A stretch of 62,625 bases of DNA, the filler included. It is 4 parts of 4 records of this genome, joined end to end, with 100 filler letters (N's around TTAATTAATTAA, not from the genome) between each part and the next. Parts side by side here need not be neighbours in the genome. Positions count along the whole stretch, not along the records: positions 43,041 to 52,713 come from SRR31156797_8418; 3 more parts are not named here. One strand, written 5' to 3'. Position numbers and translations under genes: made by a program. The notes beneath the pieces are model-generated. The model was not told where the DNA came from, made no database searches, and worked only from the letters and a program-made list of their open reading frames with translations. Below are positions 39,499 through 56,766 of this stretch, in pieces; the stretch's first letter is position 1, and each line of letters opens with the position of its first letter.

Positions 39499-40794
39499 GT
39501 GGTCGATAACATGCCAGGTAAAATTGGCCGTTACAATGTCCTTAAAGCACTCGGCCGCGGGGGCATGGGCGCTGTTTTTCTGGCCCACGATCCTTTTATC
39601 GACCGGCCCGTGGCCGTAAAAACAACCAAGGCCCCTCCACCCAGCGACCCGCAAAAATTCGACGAATACCAGCAGTTATTTTTTAATGAAGCCCGGGCGG
39701 CCGGCAAACTCATGCATAGAAATATCGTTTCCATGTACGACGCCCTGGTGGATGAACACCACAGTTACATGGTCATGGAATACGTGGACGGCCTGACCCT
39801 TTCCAAATACTGCCGCCAGGACAATCTTCTGCCCATTCACAAGGTGGTCAACATAGTATTCCAGTGCGCCAAGGCTTTGGATTACGCTCATGAGCGCGGC
39901 GTCGTGCACAGGGATATTAAACCCAGCAATATACTTGTTTCCGAACTGGGCTCGGCCAAGATATCCGACTTCGGCATCGCCAGGATAGCAGGCGCCTCCC
40001 TGACCGAATCCATGAAAACATTGGCCGGTTCCGTTAATTACTCTTCTCCGGAACAACTTCGAAACGAAGAACTTACCGGGCAGACAGATATTTTTTCCCT
40101 GGGCGTGGTCTTATATGAAATGCTGACCGGCGTTCGGCCGTTTGACGCGGAAACAGACATTGCCGTCTTCTACCGAATCAATAATGAAGAACCCAAACCG
40201 GTTAAGGAATGCCGGGTGGATGTGCCTGAATCCCTGGAAAAAATCGTTCATCGCTGTTTGCAGAAAGACCTGGATAAAAGGTATGCCTCGGGCGGGCTGC
40301 TGGCCCAGGAATTGATCGCCTCCTTCGACCACCTGCGGTTTCTCAAGGAAGAAATTAACAACGAAGAAAAAATCAATGTATTGAAAAAAATAGGGTTTTT
40401 TAAAGGATTTTCAGCCAGTGAACTGGCCGAGGTCCTCAAGGAGACAGCCTGGGTCAGGTATGAAGGCGGCTCCCTGATCATTTCCGAAGGGGAAATAGAC
40501 GACAGTTTTTTTGTCCTGGTTTCCGGAGAAGTCATTGTCAGGAAAAAAGGACGAGTGCTGGCTACACTTAAACCCGGAGACTGTTTCGGTGAAATGGCCT
40601 ATTTTGGCAATATCAAACGCACGGCCAGCATTCTGGCCGTGGGCGCGGCAATACTGATGAAAATACATGCTTCAAACGTAGACAATATGTCCATCAGCAC
40701 TCAACTTAGATTTTACAAAATATTTTCAACAACCTTGATACAAAGGCTGGCCCGGACCAGCGAAGAATTGTCCAGGACCGGCTTTACTCTGTAA
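39499..40794 (+). CDS. Hanks-type Ser/Thr kinase fused to a cyclic-nucleotide-binding domain
   Basis: LGRGGMG, VAVK, HRDIKPSN, DFG, YSSPE; C-terminal G.CFGEMA....RTAS. Confidence 0.93.
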   Translation: MVDNMPGKIGRYNVLKALGRGGMGAVFLAHDPFIDRPVAVKTTKAPPPSDPQKFDEYQQLFFNEARAAGKLMHRNIVSMYDALVDEHHSYMVMEYVDGLTLSKYCRQDNLLPIHKVVNIVFQCAKALDYAHERGVVHRDIKPSNILVSELGSAKISDFGIARIAGASLTESMKTLAGSVNYSSPEQLRNEELTGQTDIFSLGVVLYEMLTGVRPFDAETDIAVFYRINNEEPKPVKECRVDVPESLEKIVHRCLQKDLDKRYASGGLLAQELIASFDHLRFLKEEINNEEKINVLKKIGFFKGFSASELAEVLKETAWVRYEGGSLIISEGEIDDSFFVLVSGEVIVRKKGRVLATLKPGDCFGEMAYFGNIKRTASILAVGAAILMKIHASNVDNMSISTQLRFYKIFSTTLIQRLARTSEELSRTGFTL

Positions 40795-40846
40795 TTCAAT
40801 TATCAATTACCTGAAGTTAGAATTCTCTATCGGAGGCAAAAAAATC

Positions 40847-41923
40847 ATGAGCAAGGAATTTCCACTGGTTGAATTAAGCGGCGCTCCTTTTGATATGGGT
40901 TTTGCTCACGGCCGGGCCCTGGCCCATAAAATTAAAGAAAACCTGGCTCACTATACCGGCTGGATTACATACCTGACCGGAACGCAGGCGGACTGGACCC
41001 GGGAGGCGGCCCGTAAATTTATCCCCGCCCTGGAAAACGAAGCTCCCGAATTGCTTGAAGAAATGCAAGGCATTGCCAAAGGTGCGGATGTGTCGTTGGA
41101 AGACGTCCTTTTTATCAACGCCCGGTCGGAATTGCTGCTTATGAGCCCCCAGTCGGGATTGCCTCAGGCAGGCGAATGCACAGCCGTAGCTTTAGCCGGG
41201 AATCGGACCGAATACGGCCGGCTCATCATGGGCCAGAATTGGGATTGGTATCACCGCATACTCGAGACTTCGGCCGTGTTCCATATAAAACCTTCAAAAG
41301 CTCCGGCCGCCTTTTACCTGGCCGAAGCCGGGCAGGTGGGTAAAATAGGAATCAATGAAGCCGGCGTAGGCGTTCTGATTAATATCCTTATGACTGGCGG
41401 CGTGGGGCAAGGCATCCCCTTTCACGTTCTTCTGCGAATGGTTTTGGCTGAAGAAAAATGCACGGACGCTGCGGCCATGGTCAAAAACGCCCCCAGGGCC
41501 GGCGCCAGCCATTTGATGATCGGCGACGCCAATGGAGATGCAATCGGTATTGAAATAAGCGATGTCACATCCGCTGAAATCAAGCCGGATAACGGCCTGC
41601 TGATACACACCAACCATTATTGCGACCCGGATCTCGCCCCCCAAGACCTGGGCAAGGCCCTGTTTGTCGATTCCGAACCTCGATACAACCGGGCCCAATC
41701 AATATTGGCCGAAAAAGATATCTGGGACGAAAAATCTTTTGAAACCCTGTTTGTTAATCATGAAGACGGATTGCCGTCCATATGCCGGCATGTGGACCAC
41801 GAAGCTGACGAATACATGAGAGTCGCCACCCTGGCTTCCGTCATTATGGTCCCGGACAGCAAAACCATGCGCGTCACGTATGGAAATCCCTGCGACGCCG
41901 AATATAGCGAATACAAGCTGTAA
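40847..41923 (+). CDS. Peptidase C45 (isopenicillin-N acyltransferase-like Ntn hydrolase)
   Basis: G..HG, EEMQGIA.GA, GECT autocleavage site, GQNWDW, GINEAG, HTNH. Confidence 0.9.
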   Translation: MSKEFPLVELSGAPFDMGFAHGRALAHKIKENLAHYTGWITYLTGTQADWTREAARKFIPALENEAPELLEEMQGIAKGADVSLEDVLFINARSELLLMSPQSGLPQAGECTAVALAGNRTEYGRLIMGQNWDWYHRILETSAVFHIKPSKAPAAFYLAEAGQVGKIGINEAGVGVLINILMTGGVGQGIPFHVLLRMVLAEEKCTDAAAMVKNAPRAGASHLMIGDANGDAIGIEISDVTSAEIKPDNGLLIHTNHYCDPDLAPQDLGKALFVDSEPRYNRAQSILAEKDIWDEKSFETLFVNHEDGLPSICRHVDHEADEYMRVATLASVIMVPDSKTMRVTYGNPCDAEYSEYKL

Positions 41924-41958
41924 AGCCTGTTGCAGCCAGTCCCCTTTGGAGAACCAAC

Positions 41959-42840
41959 ATGGAAACCGCTTTCGGACCCGTGCGTATACTTTTTGGAGAC
42001 AACCGCGGCAAGTACCCAAATTGCCATACAATTTACGTGGAAGCCGACACCAGGGTCGTCATAGATCCCGGCTGCAACCGGGACGTGTTATCCGGGCTGC
42101 TTAAAGGGCCCGGCGTGGATGCTGTCTGGTTGACCCATGTTCACGAAGATCATATAACCCACCTCGATCTTTTCATGGACCGCCCGTTGTGGGTTTCTGA
42201 AAAAGAGGCTTCCGCTTTTGACAGCCTGGACGCCTTCATGAGCTTTTTCCCTCAAACAGATGAAGAAAGAGCCATGTGGGATCAAATGCTTATCGAAACA
42301 TTTCATTACCGGCCGCGGAAAGTCGACCGTCTCTTTTCAGGGCGGGAAACAATAGATTTGGGCGGCGTAATTGTGGAAGCCGTGCCCGCCCCCGGACACA
42401 CGCCCGGGCATTATTCCTTTTATTTTCCGGAACAGGGCGTCCTGTTCATGGCCGATTACGACCTGACCCCGTTCGGCCCGTATTACGGCGATTTATATTC
42501 GGACATTGACGACGTGATCGACTCGGTCAACAGACTGCGTGAAATCCCGGCCAAAATCTGGCTGACTTCCCACGAAAAGGGGATGATTGAAGCCGAACCA
42601 GGCGACCTTTGGGATAAATACCTGGCCGTAATCGATACACGGGAAAACAAGCTGCTCGATCTGTTAAAAGAGCCGCGCACCATGGAAGAAATTATCCAGG
42701 CCAGGATTGTATACGGCAAAGTCCGTGAACCTAAGGAATTTTTCGATTACGGCGAACGAAACCTCATGGCCCGGCACCTTGTCCGCCTGATGAACAATGG
42801 CGTCGTAGCCCATGAAAATGATAGATATTCTCTGATTTAA
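41959..42840 (+). CDS. MBL-fold metallo-hydrolase with C-terminal wHTH-like region
   Basis: IDPG, THVHEDH, PGHTPGH, ADYDL, TSH. Confidence 0.88.
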   Translation: METAFGPVRILFGDNRGKYPNCHTIYVEADTRVVIDPGCNRDVLSGLLKGPGVDAVWLTHVHEDHITHLDLFMDRPLWVSEKEASAFDSLDAFMSFFPQTDEERAMWDQMLIETFHYRPRKVDRLFSGRETIDLGGVIVEAVPAPGHTPGHYSFYFPEQGVLFMADYDLTPFGPYYGDLYSDIDDVIDSVNRLREIPAKIWLTSHEKGMIEAEPGDLWDKYLAVIDTRENKLLDLLKEPRTMEEIIQARIVYGKVREPKEFFDYGERNLMARHLVRLMNNGVVAHENDRYSLI

Positions 42841-42940
42841 AACCTCTCAAGCCGTGGTGATTTTTACTGCTGCCCAATTTACTCTTTAATTACTCTCGCT
42901 CCCAGGCTCTGCCTCAATGTTGTTGATTTAAGCTATTACG

Positions 42941-43040
42941 NNNNNNNNNNNNNNNNNNNNNNNNNNNNNNNNNNNNNNNNNNNNTTAATTAATTAANNNN
43001 NNNNNNNNNNNNNNNNNNNNNNNNNNNNNNNNNNNNNNNN
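42941..43040. other. Artificial contig linker
   Basis: N44-TTAATTAATTAA-N44. Confidence 0.99.
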
Positions 43041-43430
43041 TTAAGGCCATTATTTTTGCAGTTCATTATAGATTGAACTAACTAATTTATTTAGCAAAGT
43101 TAGTTTTTTGAATTTTTTTACTGATATTAGACAAATTGTCGTTTTGTGTTATTTTTGTCTAAAAATTTCAGTTTTTTTACAAAATTCATGTTTTAATTTA
43201 TTTTTATGCTGATTAGTAGAGCAAATAACACTAAACAGTGTCTTTATGTGTCACATATGACGTTTTTATAATGTTTGTTTTTCTTGTGAAAGTTATGTGG
43301 AAGGTGTATAATTTAGGGAAATATGAATAATGCGCAATAATGTTGCGTGTTATTATATATGCAACTTTTTACTTATATAATGCCTATAAACGAATTAGGT
43401 GTGATACTTCATTAATTTTAAGGAGGAAAT

Positions 43431-44051
43431 ATGAATATATTTCAAGCGGTTTTATGTAATTGGTATACACTAGATGTTAAGTTTAATTATGTACTTTTTA
43501 TCGGAATCATTTCCATTATTTTACTGATTAGATTTTTTATTAAGCATAAGGCACAAGATTTCGAAATTGATTCTGCTGAGTTTGGTTTTGGAGCCAATAA
43601 GTTAGTCATAAAAGAAAATAGCCTTGATTATCAAATTGCATATATGATATGGATTGAACTAAGTACAAGAAAGTTAGGGATAATGATCGACAAGGAACAT
43701 GATGTTGTTCACGAAATTTATGATTCTTGGTATAATTTTTTTGAAATCACACGTGAGTTGTTGAAAGAAATACCAGTAAGTAAAATTAATAGATCGGATA
43801 CCACATATAAATTAATTGAGCTTTCTTTTGAAGTTTTAAATGATATAATACGTCCTCATTTAACAGTTTGGCAAGCTAAATATAGAAAATGGTATAAAAA
43901 TAATGAGAATAATTATGAGAACCTTACTCCTCAGGAGACACAAAAGAAGTATCCAGAGTATAATAAACTTTTGAAAGAGATGGAGTTAGTTAATAAACAG
44001 TTAATAAATTATAGAAATTTAATGTATGGAATTATAAGGAGGGGAAGATAA
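43431..44051 (+). CDS. Uncharacterised single-TM helical protein, first gene of the TIR operon
   Basis: AAGGAGG RBS; TM at ~aa 19-36; WIELSTRK, YDSWY, IRPHLTVWQ motifs; TAA directly abuts the next ATG. Confidence 0.75.
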   Translation: MNIFQAVLCNWYTLDVKFNYVLFIGIISIILLIRFFIKHKAQDFEIDSAEFGFGANKLVIKENSLDYQIAYMIWIELSTRKLGIMIDKEHDVVHEIYDSWYNFFEITRELLKEIPVSKINRSDTTYKLIELSFEVLNDIIRPHLTVWQAKYRKWYKNNENNYENLTPQETQKKYPEYNKLLKEMELVNKQLINYRNLMYGIIRRGR

Positions 44052-44657
44052 ATGCACAAGGTATTTATTAGTTATCATCATGCCAATGATCAGTATTATA
44101 AAGATGAACTATTAAGACTCAATGAAACTAATCAATTTTTTGTAGATAGATCCGTAGGTGATTATGATATTGATGATTCATTAGATGATCAATCTATTAG
44201 AAAAATAATAAGAGATAAATATCTAAAAGATAGTACTATTACAATCCTTTTAGTTGGTGCAGAAACTAAGAACAGAAAACATATCGATTGGGAGCTTTAT
44301 TCCAGTATGTATAATGGTAGTAAAAATAAAAAGTCCGGAATAATTGTTGTTACTCTACAGGAACCAGATAATCAAAATTTTATTGCGGTTCATGATAAAG
44401 AGAAGGAAACCATATATCCAGAATGTACTAACTGGATTCCAACTTTACCTGAAAATGAGTTAAAGCGTAGATATCCTAATATGCCTAAGAGAATTATTAA
44501 GAACCTTTTATATGAGGAATCATTCATTTCAGTTATTTCTTGGGAACGATTTATTAGTAGCCCAACTATAATTAAGTTTCTTCTTGACGCAACTTACAAC
44601 GATAGAAGTAAAGCTGAATATGATTTAAGTATGCCAATGAGAAGGGCTAACGGTTAG
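44052..44657 (+). CDS. thsB: Thoeris ThsB-like TIR protein (DUF1863 type) 1
   Basis: KVFISYHH.ND, IRDKYLKDSTITILLVG.ET..RKHIDWEL (putative catalytic Glu). Confidence 0.88.
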   Translation: MHKVFISYHHANDQYYKDELLRLNETNQFFVDRSVGDYDIDDSLDDQSIRKIIRDKYLKDSTITILLVGAETKNRKHIDWELYSSMYNGSKNKKSGIIVVTLQEPDNQNFIAVHDKEKETIYPECTNWIPTLPENELKRRYPNMPKRIIKNLLYEESFISVISWERFISSPTIIKFLLDATYNDRSKAEYDLSMPMRRANG

Positions 44658-44744
44658 CTTCGTAATAGCAATCAATATAGACAAAGTCTAGAAGTGCATT
44701 CATATCGTAAAATTATACTAAATATTAATAAAGGAGTTGAACGT

Positions 44745-45311
44745 ATGGCATATAATGGTTTTGGAATAAAACGTCAAGTGTTCATATCTCATTATAAAGG
44801 AGATAGAAAAGAAGTTGATAATTTTATTGAAAAATTTGCTAATCAAGAAAAGGTATTTACTCCTTATGTTCTAGGTGCTAATGACAATGATGAGTTCATT
44901 AACAGCACTAATACAGATTATGTAATGAATCAAATAAGGAAAAAATATTTACAAGATACAACTGTTACCATCGTTTTAATTGGGAAATGTACTCATAGTA
45001 GAAGATACATTGACTGGGAGATAAAAAGTTCTTTGAGACAAGGAGGTTTTACCCCTAATGGATTATTGGGAATTCTTTTGCCCAGTCAAGGAAATTCGGC
45101 ACATCTTCCTCCTAGATTTAAACAAAATTGGGAAAGAGGTGAACAAAATTGCTACTCTAGGTATAGATCATACCCTAAAAGTGCAAAAGAATTGCATGAT
45201 TGGATTGAAGATGCTTACGATGCAAGAATTAAAAAGGCTAATTTAATAAAAAATAGCCAAGAAATGATGAAATATAATAATAAATGCAACGTTTGTAAAA
45301 TAACCCATTAG
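44745..45311 (+). CDS. thsB: Thoeris ThsB-like TIR protein (DUF1863 type) 2
   Basis: ATG 44745 after AAGGAG; QVFISHY, IRKKYLQDTTVTIVLIG....RRYIDWEI, NGLLGI.LP...LPPR. Confidence 0.87.
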   Translation: MAYNGFGIKRQVFISHYKGDRKEVDNFIEKFANQEKVFTPYVLGANDNDEFINSTNTDYVMNQIRKKYLQDTTVTIVLIGKCTHSRRYIDWEIKSSLRQGGFTPNGLLGILLPSQGNSAHLPPRFKQNWERGEQNCYSRYRSYPKSAKELHDWIEDAYDARIKKANLIKNSQEMMKYNNKCNVCKITH

Positions 45312-45346
45312 ACAACATGTCACAAAAATAAAAAAGGAGATAAAAA

Positions 45347-45901
45347 ATGGCTATAATTAATCTATTCGATCAATTTGAAAAAAGTAAATTATATAATGAA
45401 AGTGTAATCTTAGAAAACGTTGCACTTAACAAAGAAAGAATTTTTTTATCACATAAAAGCATTGATAAAGAAAAAGTTAAAATAATTGCTAAATTTCTTA
45501 ATAAAAATGGATATGATATTTATTTAGATGAATATGATAAATTTTTGCAAGAAGCAGTTACAAATAGTAATCATAATAAAGTCGTTGAAGCGATTAAAGA
45601 AGGTATTGAAAAATCTACACATCTATTATCTTATATTTCAAAAAATACAGATAAATCTTGGTGGGTTCCTTATGAAATCGGTTTAGCTGATGAGAAATTA
45701 AAAAAAATTATGAGTTTAAAAGATAAAGAAGTTGATAACTCAAGACTTCCAGAATTTATTAAGATTAAGCCTATCATCAGAGAAGTAATTCAATTAGAAA
45801 AATATTTCCCTAAGAAATATTCTTCTAATGGTTTATTCCTATTTTCTGAAAGTAATGACAATTCCAATTATAGAACCAATCTGTATGAAATACTTGAATA
45901 A
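45347..45901 (+). CDS. Stand-alone TIR (TIR_2-type) protein
   Basis: IFLSHKSIDK, GYDIYLD, STHLL..IS..T..SWWVPYEIG (putative catalytic Glu); AAGGAG RBS. Confidence 0.88.
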   Translation: MAIINLFDQFEKSKLYNESVILENVALNKERIFLSHKSIDKEKVKIIAKFLNKNGYDIYLDEYDKFLQEAVTNSNHNKVVEAIKEGIEKSTHLLSYISKNTDKSWWVPYEIGLADEKLKKIMSLKDKEVDNSRLPEFIKIKPIIREVIQLEKYFPKKYSSNGLFLFSESNDNSNYRTNLYEILE

Positions 45902-45919
45902 TGAAAGGAGTGATATAAG

Positions 45920-47914
45920 GTGTATAAAGAGCCTTTAACTATACATATCTTGTGGCATGAAAAATTTGAAGAAGGAACAAATTTTGCCGAGTATATATTT
46001 AAAAAACTAAATAGAGATCCTGATAATATTAATTTTAGAGATATTGGTATCCCTGTAATTTTTAAAAATCTTTCTAAAAATGATACTCATATTAATTATG
46101 ATAAAACAGACAGAACATTTATAGTAATATTAGTTGATGATTACATGGTTATGGATAAAGAATGGGGTAATTATATTAATTTAATTTCGGAAAAAGTAAA
46201 AACCTCTAATAATATTCATCTTTTACCAGTAGCAATGAATAGTAATTCTTTTAATTTAAATATTGGAAGTAAAAATTACATTCGATTACATGATGTAGAA
46301 ACTTTTGAATCAATATTTAAAAATTCAGAAAATTTAAGAGATAATTTAGAGTTCAAAAAAGAGTTTTTATTAAGTGAACTATCTCATGAAATAGCAAGAG
46401 AATTAATTAATCCTGATAATAAAGCTCCTTTAAAGCTATTTTTAAGTCATGCTAAATCTGATGGAGTTAATATTACAAGAATTTTAAAAAAATATATAGA
46501 AACTTTTACGAAATCAAAAACCTTTTTTGATGCTAATGATATTGAAATTGGAAAAGAGTTTTGGGAAAGAATTGAAAAAAATATTGAAACATCTTTTTTA
46601 GTTATTATTCAATCTGATCAATACTCAAATAGTATGTGGTGTCGAAAGGAAATTCTTGCTGCAAAAAAACATAATAGACCTATTTTATGCATTAATTCAA
46701 TTGAAAAAGAAGAAAATCGTTCTTTTCCTTATATGGCAAACATTAAAAATATACGTTTGACAGAAAAATCTTCATTCAAGGATTTTTACCATGTAATAAC
46801 TGAAATATATATTGAAGCAATTCGTAATAAATTTAACCAATTAAAAATGGAAGTTTTTGTTAAAAATAATAACATTGATAGCAAAATAATAATTAATTCT
46901 CCAGAATTATTGGATTTTGTTGAAAATAAAGATTTTACAGAAGATTTAATCATTTATCCTGATCCACCATTATCTGAAGAAGAAATAGAATTATTTGATA
47001 ATTCAAAAAAATACCTAACCCCATTAACTTATATAACCAAGCATAAAAGAATATTGGAAAATAAGAAAATTTCATTCTCTATTTCTGAAGAATCTATGAA
47101 ACAAAAAAAAGTAAAGTTTTATATGCTAAAAGATATCATGAATGAATTAATTAGATATATATTTTATTACGGAGGAAATATATATTATGGCGGGGATTTA
47201 AAGTATGATGTTAAGGATAATTACAATTTATTAAAAAGTATGATTAATGTTCTAGAAGCATATAATAAAACTGCTGATAAAAACGATAAAGAAATTGTTA
47301 ATTACGTAGCATATCCTTTAACAGAAAATTTATCAATTTCAGATGAAGCAAAATATAAAAAAATAGTTAAATTTGAGAAAATAATTCCAAATGATTTTAA
47401 AACAGATTTAACAGATATAGAAAAAAATAACATATTTTGTTTAAATAAAATTGAGGATTTAGAAAAATGGTGTATATCTCTTTCTACAATGCGAGAAAAC
47501 TTATTAAAAAAAGTTGATGCTGTTGTCATAATGGGTGGAAAAACAATAGGATATAAGGGATGTTATCCTGGAGTTTTAGAAGAATTTTTGATAGCAAAAG
47601 ACAATAAAAAACCAATCTATATACTAGGCGGATTTGGTGGTACTAGTAAGGAAATAATTAATTTAATCAAAGGAAAGGATTCTGAAAAACTAAGTGAACT
47701 ATATCAACTAGAGAATAATAATGAACATTACAAAAATTATTATAATCAAAAAATAGAATTAAAATACGAAGCTATTTGTTCTCAGATTAAAAATGATGAA
47801 ATAAATCAATTGAATAATGGTCTAACTGATGAGGAAAATAAGGTTTTATTTGAATCAGAGAATGCCTATGAAATCATGAATTTAATCATAAAAGGACTAG
47901 CTAATATTTTCTAA
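45920..47914 (+). CDS. TIR-like + TIR + SLOG fusion protein
   Basis: TIR: LFLSHAKSDG, TFFDANDI, YSNSMWCRKEI (from ~46430); SLOG: ISFSISE, YYGGDL, LSTMRE, VIMGG, PGVLEE, KPIYILGGFGG (from ~47065); N-terminal alpha/beta domain resembles a degenerate TIR. Confidence 0.82.
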   Translation: MYKEPLTIHILWHEKFEEGTNFAEYIFKKLNRDPDNINFRDIGIPVIFKNLSKNDTHINYDKTDRTFIVILVDDYMVMDKEWGNYINLISEKVKTSNNIHLLPVAMNSNSFNLNIGSKNYIRLHDVETFESIFKNSENLRDNLEFKKEFLLSELSHEIARELINPDNKAPLKLFLSHAKSDGVNITRILKKYIETFTKSKTFFDANDIEIGKEFWERIEKNIETSFLVIIQSDQYSNSMWCRKEILAAKKHNRPILCINSIEKEENRSFPYMANIKNIRLTEKSSFKDFYHVITEIYIEAIRNKFNQLKMEVFVKNNNIDSKIIINSPELLDFVENKDFTEDLIIYPDPPLSEEEIELFDNSKKYLTPLTYITKHKRILENKKISFSISEESMKQKKVKFYMLKDIMNELIRYIFYYGGNIYYGGDLKYDVKDNYNLLKSMINVLEAYNKTADKNDKEIVNYVAYPLTENLSISDEAKYKKIVKFEKIIPNDFKTDLTDIEKNNIFCLNKIEDLEKWCISLSTMRENLLKKVDAVVIMGGKTIGYKGCYPGVLEEFLIAKDNKKPIYILGGFGGTSKEIINLIKGKDSEKLSELYQLENNNEHYKNYYNQKIELKYEAICSQIKNDEINQLNNGLTDEENKVLFESENAYEIMNLIIKGLANIF

Positions 47915-48001
47915 AAATTCTTATCCTAAAACTAAAGTTTTTATCCTATGCGTAGTGTGCTTGTAAACTAAGAAATAATTATGAAAGGAAGTGATTCGTA
48001 C

Positions 48002-51000
48002 ATGCAAAATACTGTTAAAACTCTTAATAGAGATTCTATATTTAAGACAGCCTATAAGCAATATCAAATATTTTTTAAATTTCTAAATAAAAATAATTGG
48101 CTCGCAAGAATAACTTCTTTATTGGTTTTTACATTACTTTCAACTCTGGTTTGGTATCTCTTACTTGGTTATCTACAATTTAATATTTGGAAACAACCTG
48201 ATCCTGGTAAACATATTGATCACTTTATACTAAATATTCTTAAAATTGATGGGATAAAATTCAATTATTTTCAGTTAAAAGGTATTTTAATGATGTGGGT
48301 TGACTCTTTAAGTATTGTCCTTCCTACCATATTTATGGTATCTATTGTTACGCTATATGCAAGTAAAATATCTAAAAAATCAAAATATTCTTTTTTATCT
48401 CTTTCTCTAAGTTTTATTATAAATATTTTTATCGCATTAGTTCCATCACTAATAGCTTTTTATATAACAGAAGCATATTTTAGTAATAATACTCTCTATA
48501 AAGAGCAAACTACTTGGTTTTTAGAGAAGTTTATAGATATTTCTTCTGATTATACATACTTTGAATCGTTTAGTATCTATGCTTTATCTACCCTTACTCC
48601 TTGGTTTATATGGATTTGTTTGTTACTATTAGAGATTTCTAAACGTAGCTCGCGTTCAGCAATTTATGTATTAACATTTATGTTTCAAGTCTTGAGATTT
48701 CAATACTCTATTTCCAATTCATTAAATATCGAAGCTGAAAAACTTGAAGAAGTTCATGGAATTAATCATCTAAAACATAAGATAAAAGGTTATTCTATAT
48801 TAACTCGTGCAGCAATAGCACGCTTTGGGGGATACGATTTTTTTATTTCATATAGTCGAAAACCTGAAAAATTAATTAAAGTTGGAGGATATAATTATGC
48901 TCATAAACTAAAAGAAATACTGGAATCAGATGGATTTAAATGTTTTATTGATGATTCAAGTATGCATCATGGTGAATCTTGGAAAAAATCAGTTTTTAAA
49001 GCATTAACACGTTCTTCAGTATTACTAGTTGTGGCAAATGCAAAAGCCTTAAAACAATCCAGTGTTATTAACGAAATCAGAACTTTTTCCCATATGCCAC
49101 GTCCAATAATGCCTATTTCTTTTAATAATAGCGTTAAAAATCTTGATACGAATTTAGAGGTCTGGTCATTATTAGAACAACGGTTACGATGTGAAGAACC
49201 TAGGGGGATTGTCGCATTAAAAGATGGAATCCCTTCGCCTGATATTATTGAAACTTGTAATAATGCTTTTATTGGAGTAAAAATACAGCGTGTTCGGCAA
49301 TTAATACTATTTCTTCTGGTGTTAGTTCTAACTGGTTTATCATTATTTGCTTGGAGAAACGCCACTAAAGAAGTTAAAGCCCGTAAAGCATTAAATATCC
49401 AACTTATTGGAAGCTCTTCAATAAATGAAATTGAAAAAAACCCTTATTTAGCTTTAATCTTAGCAAGAAAATCTGGTGACTTACTAGAAAATACTCAACC
49501 TCCTTCATCCACAATAAATGCAATTAATAAAATCTTAAATCAATGGCCTGCCCTCCACAGCGCTCAACGGATTGTAACCAATACTTTATTAACATCATCT
49601 CCATGGTTAGAAAAGGATTTTATTGCTGTAGGTAGTAGCTACGCATGGCTATTTCCAGAACTAAGAAAACCTAGGGAATTTCAACCTATTGAATATCGAA
49701 ATCCTATAGATTTTTCTGAAATTAATCCAACAAGTGGAACTTATCTAAAAAATATAAATCAGTTTATATTAGGTGATTACAAAGGTAATATTTATAAGCT
49801 TTCGCGTGATGCTTCTAAACTCAAACTTTTAGAAAATTTAGCAGATGATAGAATTTCCCCCATTGTTAGTACAGAATCGCTACCTAACTATATACTATAT
49901 GCTACTGAAGCTGATCATCCAGAGATTTGTCTTTTAAATATTAAAACAATGCAAACGCAAAAAATTAATTTTAATCAATTTAAGTATCAAATTGATCAGC
50001 TGGCTATGACTTCAAATAAAATATATGCTCTCTCTAGAGGAAATCTATTTGAAGCATCTCTTTTAAAAATAAAAGATGAGATCCAAATTGATGAAAATTC
50101 ATGGAAAAAACTAGAAACACCTATCGACTCTATAGATCATTTTGCATTAAAAGCAGATTCTAACATTTTTGCAGTTACAGACGGTTATAAGTATTTTATA
50201 ATTGATTCCTCTAAAAATGAAATTATTCATAACGACGAATTTAAAAACACCTATATAAGTGCACTTACTTTTGCACTTAATAGTAACCAAATAGCTATTA
50301 GCTTACAGAGCAATAAGAAAAACGAAGTTATTTGTATTGATTTTTATAACAAGAAATCTTTAAATTCCTATCCAAGTCTTGATAATGTTGCTGCTTCTTA
50401 CATTAAGTACATCGATAACGATTCGAAACTTGTATCTGTAAGCTACGAAGGGCTAGCTGTAATATGGGATCTAGAAATTGAACAATTACAACCAACAACA
50501 CTTCCTGGAAAGCTGATAGCAGTTGAACCAAAATTTAAAGGTGGCTTTGACTTACTTATTGACAAAAAAAATGATGAACCTCTATATAATTCAAACGATA
50601 ATATTAGAGTAAATATAATGCCATACGAAAGTACAGGGACTTTTCATGATTTTTCTTCATCTGTGGAAAATGATTTCCTATTTTTATCAAAAGGTAATTC
50701 CGTGTATAAAAAATCTCCTTCTGATGAAAATGAATGGGAAAAATTACTCACCGATAATACTGGAAAGCAAATTAAAAAACTAGATACAATTAATAACCAC
50801 ATTTGGTTATTTCGTGATGATCTTATGTTCAACAATTATGACTTAAAAAATGGGTCTTTTAATAATGAATGGTTAAAATCACCTCGCAGTAGTGCTCGTT
50901 TTGTAAATCGTTCAATGTCAAAAAATGAAATTGAACAGAGAAGTATTATAAGACAAATTATCTACTCACCACAACTTAACTTGAAGCTATTGATATTATC

Positions 51001-51598
51001 TAATGGTAGTTTAATAAAATATCAATTAGGATTACTACAAAAATTAAATATTCTTCCCTTACATAGTTCATTAACTTATGGAATTACTAACATTAGTAGT
51101 AATGAAATTATTCATACCTCTAATAATAACTCATTTCTTGCAATTGCTAATGAAAATAGTTCTGAAGTCACAATGTTCCATATTAAGGAAAAAAGAATTA
51201 TTAAAAAAAATAAATATTTTGATAAAAAACCTGTTGGTTTAGCTCTTTCAAATCATAGTGAAATGCTAGCAATAATATTTGAGAAGCAAAATCCAAATAC
51301 AGCTGAAGGAATTGATTTAATCCTTCAAATACTCGATCCTAACTCTTTTGAACCTTTAACTTCTGAAATCTTAATACCAGGAGAATACGATGAAGAAAGG
51401 CATCCTTTAATGGCTTTTGATCCAATTGAAGAAAAATTATTAATTAGCCGTTATGGTCGAGATTATATAATTTTGCCATTTTCATTTAACCATAGTTATC
51501 AGCAATTAAGAAATAAAGTTTCTTTTGAATTATTCCCTGACGAAGCTAAAAGGTATAACTTAGAGTATATTGAATTACCAAAAAGATCTGTTAAATAA
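48002..51598 (+). CDS. Multi-TM + TIR + TM + WD40-like beta-propeller protein
   Basis: About 4 N-terminal hydrophobic helices; TIR YDFFISYSR, CFIDD, SSVLLVV, SVINEI; TM LILFLLVLVLTGLSLFAW; WD-like blades such as LVSVSYEGLAVIWDL; ATG 48002 after AAGGAAGTGA (ORF track starts at 47981). Confidence 0.78.
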   Translation: MQNTVKTLNRDSIFKTAYKQYQIFFKFLNKNNWLARITSLLVFTLLSTLVWYLLLGYLQFNIWKQPDPGKHIDHFILNILKIDGIKFNYFQLKGILMMWVDSLSIVLPTIFMVSIVTLYASKISKKSKYSFLSLSLSFIINIFIALVPSLIAFYITEAYFSNNTLYKEQTTWFLEKFIDISSDYTYFESFSIYALSTLTPWFIWICLLLLEISKRSSRSAIYVLTFMFQVLRFQYSISNSLNIEAEKLEEVHGINHLKHKIKGYSILTRAAIARFGGYDFFISYSRKPEKLIKVGGYNYAHKLKEILESDGFKCFIDDSSMHHGESWKKSVFKALTRSSVLLVVANAKALKQSSVINEIRTFSHMPRPIMPISFNNSVKNLDTNLEVWSLLEQRLRCEEPRGIVALKDGIPSPDIIETCNNAFIGVKIQRVRQLILFLLVLVLTGLSLFAWRNATKEVKARKALNIQLIGSSSINEIEKNPYLALILARKSGDLLENTQPPSSTINAINKILNQWPALHSAQRIVTNTLLTSSPWLEKDFIAVGSSYAWLFPELRKPREFQPIEYRNPIDFSEINPTSGTYLKNINQFILGDYKGNIYKLSRDASKLKLLENLADDRISPIVSTESLPNYILYATEADHPEICLLNIKTMQTQKINFNQFKYQIDQLAMTSNKIYALSRGNLFEASLLKIKDEIQIDENSWKKLETPIDSIDHFALKADSNIFAVTDGYKYFIIDSSKNEIIHNDEFKNTYISALTFALNSNQIAISLQSNKKNEVICIDFYNKKSLNSYPSLDNVAASYIKYIDNDSKLVSVSYEGLAVIWDLEIEQLQPTTLPGKLIAVEPKFKGGFDLLIDKKNDEPLYNSNDNIRVNIMPYESTGTFHDFSSSVENDFLFLSKGNSVYKKSPSDENEWEKLLTDNTGKQIKKLDTINNHIWLFRDDLMFNNYDLKNGSFNNEWLKSPRSSARFVNRSMSKNEIEQRSIIRQIIYSPQLNLKLLILSNGSLIKYQLGLLQKLNILPLHSSLTYGITNISSNEIIHTSNNNSFLAIANENSSEVTMFHIKEKRIIKKNKYFDKKPVGLALSNHSEMLAIIFEKQNPNTAEGIDLILQILDPNSFEPLTSEILIPGEYDEERHPLMAFDPIEEKLLISRYGRDYIILPFSFNHSYQQLRNKVSFELFPDEAKRYNLEYIELPKRSVK

Positions 51599-51711
51599 TT
51601 ATAAACAAATTAGTATACATAAACAAAACCGTCTAACAACATGACCTAAAATGAAAAGCGGATTTCAGTTTAGTCGCAAATACGATAAACTCATCAAAAG
51701 CTCTACAAAAG

Positions 51712-51763
51712 AAAAAACAACCCCTCCCAAAACGCTCAACAGCGCCTCAGGAGGGGTCTTTTT
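51712..51763. terminator. Hairpin/terminator between the TIR operon and the HEPN gene
   Basis: ACCCCTCC...GGAGGGGT stem flanked by A and T runs. Confidence 0.65.
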
Positions 51764-51774
51764 ATCTTAAATAT

Positions 51775-52680
51775 TTACTTTTCCTTCTCAGCCAATTCCC
51801 TAAACTGCTCCAACTTCTCATTACAAATATCATATGTCAGCTTCTTCAACTGCTCCACTCGAACTACTAAATACTCCAACTGTTCTTTAGTAATCACAAA
51901 GTCTTTCTTATAACGCGATCCAATATATGATTCTTGCAATTTATCAAACATATCTTTTTCCAATTGAGTTTTTCGAGGAAATGGATGTCTAAATCTTGAG
52001 TCTTCTTTTATCGCCTGCCCTAAAAGCATTTCCAAATCATGAGTTTTCGGTTTATAATCAGTAAAAATAAGAATATTCGTCATTAAAAATCTTTCTGTTG
52101 CTTGATGTAGCATCAAAGAAGCCAGTTTATAGTATTCTTTATCAAATTCAGATTCTCCCATATTAAGGTAATAATTTCTTAAGAATCTAGTAGCACTGCC
52201 TCCCCACTCTTCCAGATACTCATTCACCTTTTCAACTCTCACAACATAGCTAATCTCTTTCGGTTCCTCAAACTCCCAATTTGGCTCATTATACAGAACT
52301 ATCCCTTCATGATAAATGTCGCAGAAGAAATAACGCCTTTCATCCAACATCTCAGTTATATAGTCATAGCCGTGAAAGATCAAACTAACGGGAGTCTCAG
52401 TTTCATAGTGAGCTCTGACATAATCTCTCACTTTCCCCACGAACTTCTTGCTCCTTGATCTCCCCTCATATCTGGTAACAATCAGCAGATCATAGTCACT
52501 TTTATATTCATATGTGATACCATCTTCTACATAGCTGTCATCTACCCAAGTCCCCCGTGCAAAACTACCATAGAGAATTATCATCTCTATCCTGCCTGCG
52601 AATTCCTCTTTGATCAGATCAACGAATCTATTCAGCTCATCCTGCTTTGACTGTGGTAAATGTGCAATACTTGTCTTCAT
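51775..52680 (-). CDS. Fused nucleotidyltransferase (MNT)-HEPN protein
   Basis: ILYGSFARG, SDYDLL (pol-beta NTase); HEPN LHQATER...PKTHDL...YIGSRY. Confidence 0.88.
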   Translation of the reverse strand: MKTSIAHLPQSKQDELNRFVDLIKEEFAGRIEMIILYGSFARGTWVDDSYVEDGITYEYKSDYDLLIVTRYEGRSRSKKFVGKVRDYVRAHYETETPVSLIFHGYDYITEMLDERRYFFCDIYHEGIVLYNEPNWEFEEPKEISYVVRVEKVNEYLEEWGGSATRFLRNYYLNMGESEFDKEYYKLASLMLHQATERFLMTNILIFTDYKPKTHDLEMLLGQAIKEDSRFRHPFPRKTQLEKDMFDKLQESYIGSRYKKDFVITKEQLEYLVVRVEQLKKLTYDICNEKLEQFRELAEKEK

Positions 52681-52713
52681 AAACTCATCCTCAATAATTA
52701 GTTTTTATTCATT

Positions 52714-52813
52714 NNNNNNNNNNNNNNNNNNNNNNNNNNNNNNNNNNNNNNNNNNNNTTAATTAATTAANNNNNNNNNNNNNNNNNNNNNNNNNNNNNNN
52801 NNNNNNNNNNNNN
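52714..52813. other. Artificial contig linker
   Basis: N44-TTAATTAATTAA-N44. Confidence 0.99.
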
Positions 52814-53207
52814 ATTTTTCTTTTATTATCATTTTTACATCTTTTGTTGTAAAAATTTGTTTATCTATTAATAATAATTTAAGCTCATCAAACTCTTTTG
52901 GTGTTAACCGCGAAGGTCTTCCAGGTTGTTTTGTAGGTACTAAACCTTCATAACCACTTTGATTCCAGTAGTCACGCCATCGATAGATATTTCTACTGGG
53001 AATTTTAAATGTAGTGATGACATCTTTGACCTTCATGCCATGATATATAGCATTTAAACAAAGTAATTTAATTTTGATATTACCATTTTTTTCTTCAGAT
53101 ATACATTTTTCTAATAACTCAGGATTTAAAATCTCCATAACAATCACCCATATATGTTATACTCCATTTTTCATATAAATCTGTCATTATTTAGGATTAT
53201 CATTATA
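52814..53207 (-). mobile_element. IS630-family element, left part (transposase N-terminal HTH, 53147 to contig end)
   Basis: IYRWRDYWNQSGYEGL....PGRPSRLT pattern of IS630 HTH domains; putative end at the TA at 53207-53206. Confidence 0.72.
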
Positions 53208-53795
53208 GTTACCTGCTCCGAATTTATAACCAAGTTCAAGTGAAGTTGTTGTATAAATTAAAGCTGCGTCTAAAGAAAAGAAAGCATTACTAAGTTCAAC
53301 TGTTACTGCCTGAACTTCATATACTGCTTCAAATAAGAAGTTATTAACTTCAATTCCTAAACCAGCTCCATAATACAGCCCCATTCCAACTTCTGCATCT
53401 TGTGTATCTGTATCTAAAGCATCAATATAATCTCCACTAAAAGACGAAGCTCCAGCACTTAATCTCAAATAAGGGTTCATTCCAGCTTCTCCTAAATTTA
53501 ATTTACCTGTACCGTATACTATCATTGTATCAGTAGATGTATTATCATTATCATCCTCTTCCAAACTTGCATATTTTTTATAAGCTAAACCTGCACCAAA
53601 TTCTAAACCTTCACCAAAAAGATATTCAGCCCTAAGTACGTAACCTCCACTTGCCAAATCATTATCTGTATCATCAAAATCTCCACCAACAGTCTGAGTT
53701 CCTGATAAATCCATTCCACCTCTTACTTCTAATCCGGCTGAAAAAGCAGTTAATGATACTGTTGCTATTAATAATAGCAATATTATTTTTTTCAT
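53187..53795 (-). CDS. Outer membrane beta-barrel protein (paralog 1)
   Basis: Signal peptide MKKIILLLLIATVSLTAFSA; amphipathic strands, PYLR, LYYGAGLG, ELGYKF. Confidence 0.82.
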   Translation of the reverse strand: MKKIILLLLIATVSLTAFSAGLEVRGGMDLSGTQTVGGDFDDTDNDLASGGYVLRAEYLFGEGLEFGAGLAYKKYASLEEDDNDNTSTDTMIVYGTGKLNLGEAGMNPYLRLSAGASSFSGDYIDALDTDTQDAEVGMGLYYGAGLGIEVNNFLFEAVYEVQAVTVELSNAFFSLDAALIYTTTSLELGYKFGAGNYNDNPK

Positions 53796-53958
53796 ATTTC
53801 TCACCTACACTCTACGCATAAATATTTCTTCACCAAACCAATAATACCTTGGCATAATAATTATACGACATTATAGTTGAACAATTCATCATTATGAATT
53901 TAAAAATTGAGCAGAATAAAATCTGCTCAAAGATTAGTTAGTTTAATTTATAAAGTAA

Positions 53959-54606
53959 TTAATTTCCTGCTCCGAATTTATAACCTACTTCAAGTGTAAC
54001 TGTAGCTATATTAATTGCATCATCTGTATCAGTAAAAGTTATATCTCCTAAATTAGTTTCTCCAGTAATATCCGTTACAACTGTAACAGCATCGTAAGAA
54101 ACTTCAATCAAGATATTATTATAATCAAAACCTGCTGCAACTCCATAATATAAACCCGGACTTACTTCATATGTTACTTCTGCGCTTGTTATTAAACCTG
54201 ATGAAGCAATATAAAACGCTTCGAATACTTCTTCAACTTCTGTAAAGTAATCACCGGCACTATTCATTGCATATCCTACATTTGCTCTTAAGTAAGGACT
54301 AAATCCAGATTCTCCTAAGTTTAATTTAGTTGTACCATACAAAATCGTTGATGTCATAAATGATTTCCCATCAAGTGCTTCAGTATCTGATTCTACATTA
54401 CCAAATTGCTTATATGCAACTCCACCACCAAACTCTAATCCTTCTCCAACTAAATATTCTACTTTCACTACATAACCTGCACTCATATCTGTATCATCTG
54501 CATCTATTGAAGTTGAAGCGTCAAATCCACCTCTTACTTCTAGTCCAGCTGAAAAAGCAGTTAACGACATTGTTGCTATTAATAGTAGTAATATTATTTT
54601 TTTCAT
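53959..54606 (-). CDS. Outer membrane beta-barrel protein (paralog 2)
   Basis: Near-identical signal peptide; SPYLRANVGY, GLYYG, EVGYKFGAGN. Confidence 0.82.
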   Translation of the reverse strand: MKKIILLLLIATMSLTAFSAGLEVRGGFDASTSIDADDTDMSAGYVVKVEYLVGEGLEFGGGVAYKQFGNVESDTEALDGKSFMTSTILYGTTKLNLGESGFSPYLRANVGYAMNSAGDYFTEVEEVFEAFYIASSGLITSAEVTYEVSPGLYYGVAAGFDYNNILIEVSYDAVTVVTDITGETNLGDITFTDTDDAINIATVTLEVGYKFGAGN

Positions 54607-54902
54607 ATTCATCTCCTTTTTTAAACTCTAATTAAATCAATATTAAAGTATTAACTCCAGACCAATGAACAGATGACTTTAATCAAACGCCTCCTTTCGT
54701 TGATATATAAAAAAGATGTATATATTAATATTATCGATATAGAATCTAATTTTTTTAGTTTTTTCTCTTAAGTCATTTTACTGATTTTAGGATTTTTTCC
54801 TTTTTTTATTTACATTATGTGAAAATTTAGATCAATTTCCCTCTTGTCAATTACTCTAATAAGTTATAAAATATAAAATAAAATTAGCACAGGAGGTGTT
54901 TT

Positions 54903-55703
54903 ATGCTTACATATTACACTGATCAAAATCTTGATTTTTTTGAAATAAAAAAATGTCGAAGTGTCAGTCAGTCTGAGAAGGCACATTTTCATAACGAGAT
55001 ATCAATTATTCTAATCGAAGACTCTATAACCTATGTTACTTCAGACAAACAAATTGAATATAAATTTGAAAAAGATAGCTTTGTAATTATTCCATCTTTT
55101 AAAACTCATAACTGTGTTCCTGTTAATAAAGATGAGTTTAAATTCACTATAATGTATCTAAGCTCTGAATGGTTCGAAAAAACTTTTCACTTTAATCTGG
55201 ATAATAAAGAGATTCAATTTTATAAACTTAATTCAGATGAAGTAAAGGAAGTTATTAATTTATTTGAAATATTTCAATCGGATATCTCTCCTATAACAAA
55301 GGAGTTTAACTTAATAAAATTCCTGGAAAAATACCTTATTGAAAAAACTGATTTTTCTAATGAGAGTCAAATTAATTCTGTTAAGCAGAGTAAGCTTGAG
55401 CTTGTAAGAAAATATTTAAGTCAAAATTATAATGAGAAAGTTTCCTTGGAAAAATTAAGCGAGATTTCAGGTTTAAGTAAATATCACCTTACAAGAAGTT
55501 TCAAATCAAAATATGATCTCAGCCCGCTTAACTATCAAAAAAATATTAAATTTAATCATGCTAAAAAGTTTTTAAGAAGAAATAATAATATCTCAGACCT
55601 TGCACTTGATTTGGGTTATTATGACCAGAGTCATTTTACTAATGAATTTAAGAAATTTTCAGGAATTTCTCCAAAAAAATATAGAAAAAGTACAAAACAT
55701 TAA
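54903..55703 (+). CDS. AraC family transcriptional regulator
   Basis: AHFHNE cupin; SGLSKYHLTRSFK, LGYYDQSHFTNEFKK..G.SP. Confidence 0.93.
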   Translation: MLTYYTDQNLDFFEIKKCRSVSQSEKAHFHNEISIILIEDSITYVTSDKQIEYKFEKDSFVIIPSFKTHNCVPVNKDEFKFTIMYLSSEWFEKTFHFNLDNKEIQFYKLNSDEVKEVINLFEIFQSDISPITKEFNLIKFLEKYLIEKTDFSNESQINSVKQSKLELVRKYLSQNYNEKVSLEKLSEISGLSKYHLTRSFKSKYDLSPLNYQKNIKFNHAKKFLRRNNNISDLALDLGYYDQSHFTNEFKKFSGISPKKYRKSTKH

Positions 55704-56700: not shown

Positions 56701-56766
56701 TAAAAAAGAACTTAGCTGATAATACTAATTTAAAATAGGCAAAAGTTTAATTTTATTCCAAAAAAT

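Follow-up and report, generated by a model that had tools for sequence, protein, structure and literature searches.

A probable composite Thoeris-type locus encoding several TIR proteins, a TIR-SLOG fusion and a candidate membrane effector of an unnamed family

The stretch of DNA analysed here (62,625 nucleotides including linkers, hereafter the window) contains at positions 43431-51598 six closely spaced genes on one strand, g1, g2, g3, g4, G5, and g6, five of which encode proteins with a TIR domain. Our preferred reading, which we hold to be fairly probable, is that this locus is a composite anti-phage signalling island of the Thoeris type, with separable modules that probably share NAD-derived signals made by TIR proteins. 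It appears to consist of two or three Thoeris variants standing side by side and not to be a wholly new kind of immunity, and it comprises two candidate effectors (g1 and G5) and four candidate sensors (g2, g3, g4, and g6). The gene structure, the domain identities, the conserved catalytic and motif residues, the structural likenesses and the recurrent gene neighbourhoods on which this reading is built were established directly.

In the mechanism proposed here, g2, g3, and g4 would be ThsB-like sensor TIR proteins that respond to the detection of a phage with the production of an ADP-ribose-derived signal. The signal would be read by the cytoplasmic four-helix bundle of g1, probably via an arginine-lined pocket between protomers, and the g1 oligomer, once signalled, would damage the membrane through its N-terminal transmembrane (TM) helix. 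G5 would be a second effector analogous to ThsA, whose SLOG domain binds the signal, whereupon the protein assembles, its own TIR NADase is switched on and NAD+ is depleted. The last protein, g6, would be a rare membrane-anchored TIR protein with a propeller as an extra sensor. The 8-kb locus offers three testable items, namely the unnamed effector family g1, the TIR-SLOG family G5 and the rare membrane TIR protein g6. If the effector reading of the G5 family is true, TIR domains would serve as read-out as well as sender in Thoeris.

Gene Calling and Survey of Related Loci

A preliminary description of this DNA had proposed six tightly spaced, co-oriented genes, and calling of open reading frames (ORFs) with translation table 11 returned six same-strand ORFs at exactly the coordinates proposed there. 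The spacers between g1, g2, g3, g4, G5, and g6 measure 0, 36, 35, 18, and 66 nt, respectively, and the start of g2 is the first base past the stop codon of g1.

Two sets of related loci (numbered with the prefix L) were used for the neighbourhood analysis. Species-representative genomes were searched for G5 homologues using a pattern scan with alignment, by which 475 of 600 candidate stretches were confirmed and the best 80 were taken as G5-centred loci. Close relatives of g1 were searched for using a metagenome scan with alignment (495 of 596 candidates confirmed), and 80 g1-centred loci were analysed. The ORFs of the G5 loci were clustered by BLAST and Pfam was run on the cluster representatives. 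The window's own TIR proteins were the queries of the TIR search in the loci, so that all counts of TIR genes given below are lower bounds; two extra TIR families (c15 and c20) came up via Pfam alone. Relatives of g1 were collected by running HMMER over the whole of a set of 1.84 billion representatives.

Small TIR Proteins and the Catalytic Glutamate

The three small TIR proteins are encoded on the + strand by g2 (44052..44657; 201 aa; ThsB_TIR, 6.4e-20; motif IDWEL with E81), g3 (44694..45311; ThsB_TIR, 7.2e-18; motif IDWEI) and g4 (45347..45901; 184 aa; TIR_2, 8.1e-10; motif VPYEI). The true start of g3 is probably the ATG at 44745, as judged by alignment with its orthologues. Among the PADLOC models only those for ThsB matched, on g2, g3, and g4 (g4 down to 5e-18), with no match on g1 or G5, and none of the six proteins had an above-cut-off match in NCBIfam; the expectation that no existing defence model would cover the whole set was thus confirmed for these two collections.

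A profile built from g2/g3-type TIR proteins matched ThsB from B. cereus (BcThsB; 6lhy, 9b7d) with an E-value of 5e-7, whereas the g2 sequence alone gave no match among PDB sequences, so that the profile was required. In the profile alignment DWE is aligned to RYE, and the invariant R..DWE..SS motif overlies RRWVRYEIMKS of BcThsB, in which the Glu of the RYE motif is taken by us to be the catalytic Glu. The putative catalytic Glu of G5 is E244, whose counterpart in the alignment to AtTIR (3jrn) is the Glu of SSWCLDEL (CLDEL), and none of 24 homologues departs from it; the corresponding residue is retained in 27 of 27 g4-type and 7 of 7 g6-type TIR domains. The earlier observation that all five TIR domains keep this Glu (in IDWEL, IDWEI, VPYEI, CRKEI, and VINEI) therefore stands, with each motif at the catalytic position according to the BcThsB and AtTIR alignments and to family conservation. 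By Pfam and these alignments, five window proteins are TIR proteins with an intact catalytic Glu, a feature by which Thoeris is recognised.

The small TIR proteins have relatives beside both candidate effectors. Orthologues of g2 (E-values of 1e-57 to 1e-73 in the G5 loci) adjoin both G5 and g1 genes, orthologues of g3 (1e-84 to 1e-96) lie directly 5' of G5 homologues in L035, L058, L075, L076, and L143, and g4 homologues were found in 33 of the 80 G5-centred loci, many of them adjoining the G5 homologue; the g4 orthologues near G5 have E-values of 1e-24 to 1e-32. A quick maximum likelihood tree of 90 g2/g3-type TIR proteins contained 43 rows with g1 as partner, 33 with G5 and 14 with both in the locus, where many of the g1 labels come from short contigs past whose end a G5 gene could lie. 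The partner label has to change 13-14 times along this tree, or at least 8-9 times when only the starred (well-supported) branches were counted, and the clade containing g2 (support 100) combined 12 G5-linked, three g1-linked and two "both" rows. This pattern agrees with an exchange of effectors between sensors that are close relatives and, by extension, with a signal that they may share. Because closely related TIR proteins adjoin either effector, the locus is suited to ask if one signal serves both effectors, and which cyclic ADP-ribose (cADPR) isomer or new molecule this signal is.

The Candidate Membrane Effector g1

The first gene, g1 (43431..44051, + strand), encodes a protein of 206 aa that had no match in Pfam (E up to 0.01), PADLOC or NCBIfam. 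The HMMER scan recovered a family of 501 cluster representatives, mostly of 200-230 aa, of which 84 scored below 1e-30, and in a Pfam search of 49 family members (E up to 1) no Pfam family was matched by the family as a whole.

The gene neighbourhood of this family carries the argument for a Thoeris-type function. A same-strand ThsB-type TIR ORF lies at most 250 bp from g1 in 53 of the 80 g1-centred loci, and 14 further loci have a TIR ORF at a distance of up to about 1.3 kb. No TIR was found in the remaining 13 of 80, and 10 of those have less than 600 bp of contig on one side. G5 occurs in three of the 80 loci (L100, L106, and L143) and in two of the 12 loci that have at least 5 kb on each side. 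With this adjacency, and mostly with no G5 on the contig, g1 and its TIR gene act like a self-contained operon of two genes, the signature of Thoeris, and g1 pairs with ThsB TIR proteins as regularly as the named effectors do. The leading TM gene had previously been regarded as an unfamiliar addition to the locus; this regular pairing speaks against that view, and among the candidates for an autonomous effector of the Thoeris type g1 ranks first by its own neighbourhood.

The hydropathy profile of g1 contains one TM segment. Its AlphaFold2 (AF2) model, with a predicted local distance difference test (pLDDT) value of 92.9, begins with a hairpin; the TM helix (about residues 20-43) comes next and is followed by another hairpin and a four-helix bundle. 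No similar fold was found in the PDB (Foldseek, E up to 0.001), and a wider fold search returned generic or designed four-helix bundles only. In an alignment of 49 sequences R80, R108, and R141 are invariant. A four-copy model of g1 scored 0.45 (best control, 0.01), with at least 40% agreement of contacts between runs and a partner pLDDT of at least 67; in the calibration, which used two copies and not four, 21 of 30 proteins whose solved structure is a pair of one chain attained the mark, as against none of 23 with a single-chain structure, and the g1 alignment was not used in the complex run. The interface in this model is formed by residues 67-79 against 102-118 and 133-137, adjacent to the invariant residues.

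Next to G5, the g1 domain is found in other contexts. It is present as a soluble domain without the TM helix in L011, L024, L048, and L051, it is fused N-terminally to a patatin domain with seven TM helices in L007 and L010, and C-terminally to a Tle1-like lipase in L064. As it is combined now with a TM helix and now with one of two phospholipase types, the domain looks like a regulatory or sensor module of membrane-attacking effectors. We propose that g1 itself is a signal-gated membrane effector from an unnamed family. The idea that the g1 domain is a homotypic adaptor for the N-terminal or linker region of G5 was considered separately and dropped (hhalign probability of 0.1-0.2%).

The TIR-SLOG Fusion G5

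G5 (45920..47914, + strand) encodes a protein of 664 aa with matches to TIR_2 (3.5e-12), SLOG cluster 2 (PF18163; 4.4e-74) and STALD (2.2e-5). It is composed of an N-terminal beta-alpha domain (1-165), a TIR domain (about 170-302), a linker with an invariant YPDPP motif and the SLOG cluster 2 domain (about 378-664). The match to PF18163 (LD_cluster2) reached 249.8 bits against a cut-off of 25.3 bits, with residues 379-643 covering profile positions 2-264 of 264, and the match to STALD reached 24.4 bits against a cut-off of 24 bits. In the AF2 model (pLDDT of 85.4; predicted template modelling score, pTM, of 0.85) the SLOG domain superposes on the SLOG sensor of ThsA, and the nearest structures are ThsA sensor domains solved with 3'cADPR. 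We propose, by analogy, that G5 is a ThsA-like effector with a TIR NADase.

These results bear on the domain calls and on the absence of a canonical effector as given in the preliminary description. The TIR, SLOG and TM assignments hold by Pfam and hydropathy, whereas the TIR-like nature of the N-terminal part of G5 was not demonstrated: this part is a predicted beta-alpha fold in the model, and its hhalign probability of 0.8-1.4% against G5's own TIR domain and the ThsB TIR domains is uninformative, as two true TIR sets also gave just 3.9%. The structural matches listed for G5 are taken up by its TIR and SLOG domains. No SIR2, Macro or caspase domain was found by Pfam, as had been said, but with the superposition of the G5 SLOG domain on the sensor of ThsA the absence of a canonical effector is true only in part.

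A word-seeded search recovered 135 homologues of G5, nearly all with PF13676 and PF18163. Among the species-representative genomes the family is spread over many bacterial phyla and one Asgard metagenome-assembled genome. A TIR-family ORF lies within 4 kb of G5 in 46 of the 80 G5-centred loci, two or more such ORFs are present in 34, and one adjoins G5 in 30. Two settings link the family to other defence genes: in L019, L020, L025, L028, L051, L056, and L075 the hsdS and hsdR genes of a type I restriction-modification (R-M) operon flank a [TIR-G5-TIR] cassette, and on the plasmid NZ_CP133672.1 of Aureispira sp. CCB-E (L177, record positions 49576-54737) the row TIR-G5-TIR-TIR-g1 lies between cas1/cas2/cas6 and cmr of a type III-B CRISPR locus. 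This row begins with a gene for a nucleoside 2-deoxyribosyltransferase domain, and an IS4 transposase gene is adjacent.

An alternative is that G5 makes or processes the signal, its TIR domain being the maker or its SLOG domain acting like a LOG-type N-glycosidase that converts or degrades an ADP-ribose (ADPR) derivative, while killing would be left to g1-type or other partners. The LOG-type motifs GG and PG..EE are invariant in the G5 homologues, some SLOG domains may process ADPR derivatives according to the accessible part of one paper (PMC9503650), no separate TIR gene lies within 4 kb of G5 in 34 of the 80 loci, and G5 adjoins the fusions of the g1 domain with phospholipases in L007, L010, and L064, which there appear to be the real effectors. 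The closest SLOG structures are nevertheless ThsA sensors solved with 3'cADPR, and small TIR proteins are available as signal makers in the 46 loci mentioned above. We therefore consider a role of G5 as signal maker or processor very doubtful and retain the ThsA-like effector as the proposed function.

Several variants of the G5 setting were observed. The proteins P0095-P0120 (about 370-400 aa; many from Bacteroidota) match the first 55% of G5, comprising the N-terminal domain, the TIR domain and the linker, and have no SLOG domain, so that there is also a SLOG-less form of the G5 architecture. Another conserved G5 operon, seen in L012, L034, L036, L040, L041, L044, L061, L062, L066, L069, and others, contains genes for a TIR protein of about 350 aa, a thymidylate-synthase-like protein, a small TIR protein, Nmad2 and G5, sometimes with MazG_C, which points to a link of some TIR-SLOG systems with the modification or depletion of nucleotides. 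In L018, L023, and L048 (Saprospiraceae and other Bacteroidota) the G5 homologue is followed by a gene for a trypsin-like peptidase (PF13365, 1e-20), possibly a protease branch of the same signalling set; in L018 a TIR gene and a TIR-TM-WD40 gene come after the peptidase gene, with a g1-family gene further along. A trio without small ThsB genes was found in L007, L010, L011, and L024 and consists of a g1-domain protein (free, or as the fusion with patatin and seven TM helices), a G5 homologue and a STAND-WD40 giant. The giant contains TIR and nSTAND1 in L024 and nSTAND1 and WD40 in L010, and was assigned by BLAST clustering only in L007 and L011. An NLR-like TIR giant may be the sensor of this trio.

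The Membrane TIR Protein g6

The last and longest gene, g6 (47981..51598, + strand), encodes 1205 aa with matches to TIR_2 (1.4e-9; motif VINEI) and, weakly, to a WDR5-type propeller (4.8e-4). By hydropathy, four TM segments (44-217) precede the TIR domain (287-383) and one (about 437-461) follows it. The C-terminal part of roughly 740 aa is a divergent WD40-like propeller, an assignment that comes from weak Pfam matches, from the ESM-Atlas, in whose feature space the C-terminal 736 residues are near WD40 clusters (best 0.92; all WD40), and from the homology of the TIR-TM part to TIR-TM-WD40 proteins; the propeller named in the preliminary description is thus weakly based. A comparison of the C-terminal region with PDB sequences gave nothing meaningful.

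A single search with the full-length protein among proteins of near length found one full-length homologue (P0121), which is 36% identical over the whole length and retains the TIR Glu, and a second search with the TIR-TM part added one more TIR-WD40 protein (P0272). Residues 283-475, i.e., the TIR domain and the following TM segment, align to the N-termini of TIR-TM-WD40 proteins near G5 in L017, L018, L042, L079, and L080 (5/80). The propeller is predicted to lie outside the cytoplasm with the N-terminus inside, on the basis of the hydropathy topology and a manual count of Lys and Arg in the loops. We propose that g6 is a membrane-anchored TIR sensor.

In architecture g6 is reminiscent of a Toll-like receptor, with a cytoplasmic TIR domain, a membrane span and a big repeat domain that is predicted to lie across the membrane, and of bacterial TIR-TM-WD40 and TIR-nSTAND1-WD40 proteins; relatives with TIR_2, TM and WD40 occur near G5 in L018, L079, and L080. 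It differs from a Toll-like receptor in its reversed order (TIR first), its extra block of four TM segments and its very divergent propeller. A bolder reading, which we regard as distinctly unlikely, makes g6 a Toll-like immune receptor whose outside propeller would sense phage contact or envelope damage and activate the cytoplasmic TIR domain, the products of g6 and of g2-g4 being read by the g1 oligomer and the G5 NADase. If true, the locus would be an outside-in, multi-sensor, dual-effector bacterial TIR network, with g1 as a new type of Thoeris effector.

Modular Composition of the Locus

Across the related loci the set is modular and consists of a ThsB-g1 pair, a cassette of several TIR genes with the TIR-SLOG gene, and the rare membrane TIR gene. 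ORFs of the g1 family occur in 14 of the 80 G5-centred loci and are absent from 66. Genes for g1, G5, and TIR proteins are found together in L003, L008, L018, L035, L048, L051, and L078. The arrangement of L143 (TIR-g1-g4-g3-G5-TIR) is nearly that of the window, in L018 a TIR gene, G5, a second TIR gene, a TIR-TM-WD40 gene and g1 lie within 9 kb, and in L051 the row TIR-TIR-g1-G5 lies inside the R-M operon. No locus with all six families in the order of the window was found among the surveyed G5- and g1-centred loci.

The preliminary description had treated the six genes as a single system. In its strict form this would be one integrated machinery in which all genes are obligate, with, for example, four TIR sensors acting via the SLOG-TIR hub on g1. 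The tight same-strand spacing with a single terminator past g6 would agree with such a system, as would the recurrence of multi-part sets (L143, the Aureispira plasmid, L018, and L051). The full six-gene order did not recur, however, and the modules separate readily: g1 and TIR genes occur as pairs without G5 (which is present in just two of the 12 roomy loci given above), the G5 loci combine G5 and TIR genes mostly without g1, and g6 is rare, with its single full-length homologue in the searched collection and a TIR-TM-WD40 relative in only five of the G5 loci. One obligate six-gene system is hence unlikely in our view. The related idea that several TIR sensors converge on the SLOG-TIR fusion and/or the TM protein fits the neighbourhood data and is kept in the composite Thoeris-type reading.

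A number of points weigh against the composite Thoeris-type reading. The lack of a separate TIR gene in 34 of the G5 loci means that G5 may act alone or with other partners; the partners seen were, in 14 loci, nSTAND1/WD40 giants (including TIR-nSTAND1 and TIR-TM-WD40 proteins) and, in about 20, sets of Nmad2, ThyA-like and MazG_C genes, and the TIR counts are, as said, lower bounds. Many g1 homologues adjacent to G5 lack the TM helix, so that membrane damage is not the general mode of the family, and the oligomer of g1 comes from a four-copy run judged by a two-copy calibration. The tree of TIR proteins is a quick version with many g1 labels from short contigs, and the contig of the window begins 390 nt 5' of g1, where more upstream genes are possible. 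From domains, structure models and gene neighbourhoods we infer that a signal is made and bound, that NADase and membrane activities follow, and that there is defence and possibly cross-talk between the modules.

The locus could also have no immune function and serve, for example, envelope signalling or NAD metabolism, or its TIR genes could stand together on a short contig by chance. Its function is predicted from sequence and models, the contig of 9.7 kb is too short to judge an enrichment of defence genes, and g6 resembles a membrane receptor that could serve non-immune signalling. Against this, orthologous cassettes lie within type I R-M operons (7 loci) and a type III-B CRISPR locus, the ThsB models of PADLOC match g2-g4, the sole other gene of the contig encodes a nucleotidyltransferase (NT)-HEPN fusion, and the pairings recur over many phyla. 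A non-immune function is consequently highly improbable, and the composite anti-phage island remains our preferred reading.

Comparison with Known Systems

Type I Thoeris consists of a ThsB TIR protein and the SIR2-SLOG protein ThsA, with 3'cADPR as signal. The locus resembles it in its ThsB-type TIR proteins, whose Glu aligns to that of BcThsB, and differs in that the enzymatic half of G5 is a TIR domain, its SLOG domain belongs to PF18163 and not to STALD, an extra N-terminal domain is present, and there are several TIR genes where type I has one or two. None of the six window proteins had a Pfam match to SIR2, the domain of a type I ThsA, to a Macro domain (E up to 0.01), as expected in a type II effector, or to a peptidase or caspase domain, as expected in a type IV effector.

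The suggestion that the core of the locus is related to type III Thoeris held as an analogy of design. According to the accessible part of a recent preprint, type III comprises several TIR proteins and a SLOG effector (bioRxiv 10.64898/2025.12.03.692087), and the portion of a review that was available states that this SLOG domain differs from STALD. Among 401 genomes of one family, four contained type III examples by the NCBIfam models, and in one of these loci (L090) ThcB4 (TIR_2) is followed by ThcA (184 aa; SLOG cluster 3, PF18180, 1.6e-78) and ThsB_TIR. The window shares with these loci multiple TIR proteins and a non-STALD SLOG protein, but ThcA is a free-standing SLOG cluster 3 protein of 184 aa, whereas G5 is a TIR fusion of 664 aa with SLOG cluster 2. 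No match to ThcA (NF058525) or PF18180 was found on the six window proteins (E up to 0.01), while a true ThcA reached 257.6 bits. With the ThcB4 model (NF058526; cut-off of 220 bits) G5 scored 39.7 and g6 22 bits, over the TIR core only, against 399-484 bits for true members. BLASTP of G5 against ThcB4 gave an E-value of 0.20, and in a comparison of the G5 family with ThcA the hhalign probability was 1.2%. The likeness of G5 to type III Thoeris is thus one of design and not of family.

For g1 the closest comparison is with types V-VII, whose effectors ThsF (DUF2270), ThsG (DUF6650), and ThsH (SLATT) belong to two-gene operons of a TIR protein and a small effector in the part of the same preprint that could be consulted (bioRxiv 10.64898/2025.12.03.692087). 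There, the models of the three effectors are rings or filaments in which pockets of positive charge lie between the protomers, ThsG is known with and without N-terminal TM helices, and some operons combine several ThsB genes with two or more effectors (bioRxiv 10.64898/2025.12.03.692087). As far as this source goes, g1 is like these effectors: some members of its family have the TM helix and others lack it, an oligomer is predicted, and the invariant Arg residues are close to its interface. DUF2270, SLATT, and DUF6650 were not among the 25 Pfam families most matched by g1 and 48 relatives (E up to 1), and g1 was accordingly not assigned to type V or VII. A weak lead from the ESM-Atlas pointed to DUF6650 (score of 0.78, with DUF6650 on 13% of the cluster members) and hence to ThsG; the HMM and hhalign tests of this relationship were negative, as none of three real DUF6650 proteins was found by the g1 profile and the hhalign probability of g1 against DUF6650 was 1.3%, and a kinship of g1 with ThsG is kept as a weak lead.

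In the same partial text, the verified Thoeris types rise from four to eleven, each defined by its effector and often with a new NAD-derived signal, and 29 types of effector are predicted, of which 18 are untested (bioRxiv 10.64898/2025.12.03.692087). Provided that g1 is not among these 18, it would define a new type of Thoeris effector; the preprint's list of types might already include a TIR-SLOG or g1-like effector. Computationally, TIR-SLOG systems have been noted by the Aravind group, and in the accessible text this one paper, the only one found on TIR-SLOG, makes a passing mention only (PMC9503650). A literature search that did not extend to the preprint's list of putative types turned up no experiments on a TIR-SLOG cluster 2 protein or on the g1 family. 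PF18163 is an existing Pfam family, and the G5 module is new as a variant of a Thoeris-like design that was already known.

TIR-SAVED and TIR-STING of CBASS are ligand-activated TIR NADase effectors. Together with TIR-APAZ of SPARTA and with SARM1 they share with G5 the combination of a sensor domain and a TIR domain that consumes NAD+ on assembly, and G5 is unlike them in that its sensor is a SLOG domain and its neighbours are TIR proteins, not CD-NTases or Argonautes.

Sequence Context of the Locus

The window is made up of four contigs joined by three identical linkers (N44-TTAATTAATTAA-N44) at 31925-32024, 42941-43040, and 52714-52813, and the contigs accordingly occupy positions 1-31924 (G+C content of 0.32), 32025-42940 (0.52), 43041-52713 and 52814-62625. 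From the linkers at 42941-43040 and 52714-52813 it follows that the TIR locus lies on its own contig of 9,673 bp (43041-52713; G+C content of about 0.28). The order and adjacency of the contigs are not biological; arguments from flanking genes were therefore dropped and the neighbourhood evidence was drawn from related loci elsewhere.

On the TIR contig, g1 is preceded by an AT-rich, non-coding leader of 390 nt on the + strand (43041..43430), which runs from the contig start to g1 as read from the sequence. A promoter-like site at 43284-43312 (+ strand) matches the consensus, in a leader where the number of such sites is not above that in shuffled sequence, and a good Shine-Dalgarno sequence (AAGGAGG, + strand) was read immediately 5' of the g1 ATG. 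Past g6, a terminator scan identified a G+C-rich hairpin (51719..51758) with T runs on both flanks and an 18-pair stem with nine G-C pairs. It is probably a bidirectional terminator that closes the operon, between g6 and the convergent NT-HEPN gene, and is common to both. This single further gene of the contig (51775-52680, - strand) encodes the nucleotidyltransferase-HEPN fusion (HEPN, 4.6e-10; weak SMODS/NTP_transf; PADLOC candidate PDC-S09, 4.2e-6) and may be a separate defence or toxin-antitoxin-like gene.

The contig at 32025-42940 (10.9 kb) stands out with its G+C content of 0.52 against about 0.30 elsewhere in the window. This block was considered as an island boundary and rejected, as it is a separate contig. 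Its genes are of the housekeeping type, encoding a class III aminotransferase, an amino-acid permease, ComEC, MerR, a DnaJ-like protein, a Ser/Thr kinase that also has a cNMP-binding domain, an acyltransferase of the AAT family and a protein with a metallo-beta-lactamase fold, and the contig may come from another organism in the same bin. An ORF at 52758-53147 (- strand) extends into the linker and is a gene truncated by the contig edge.

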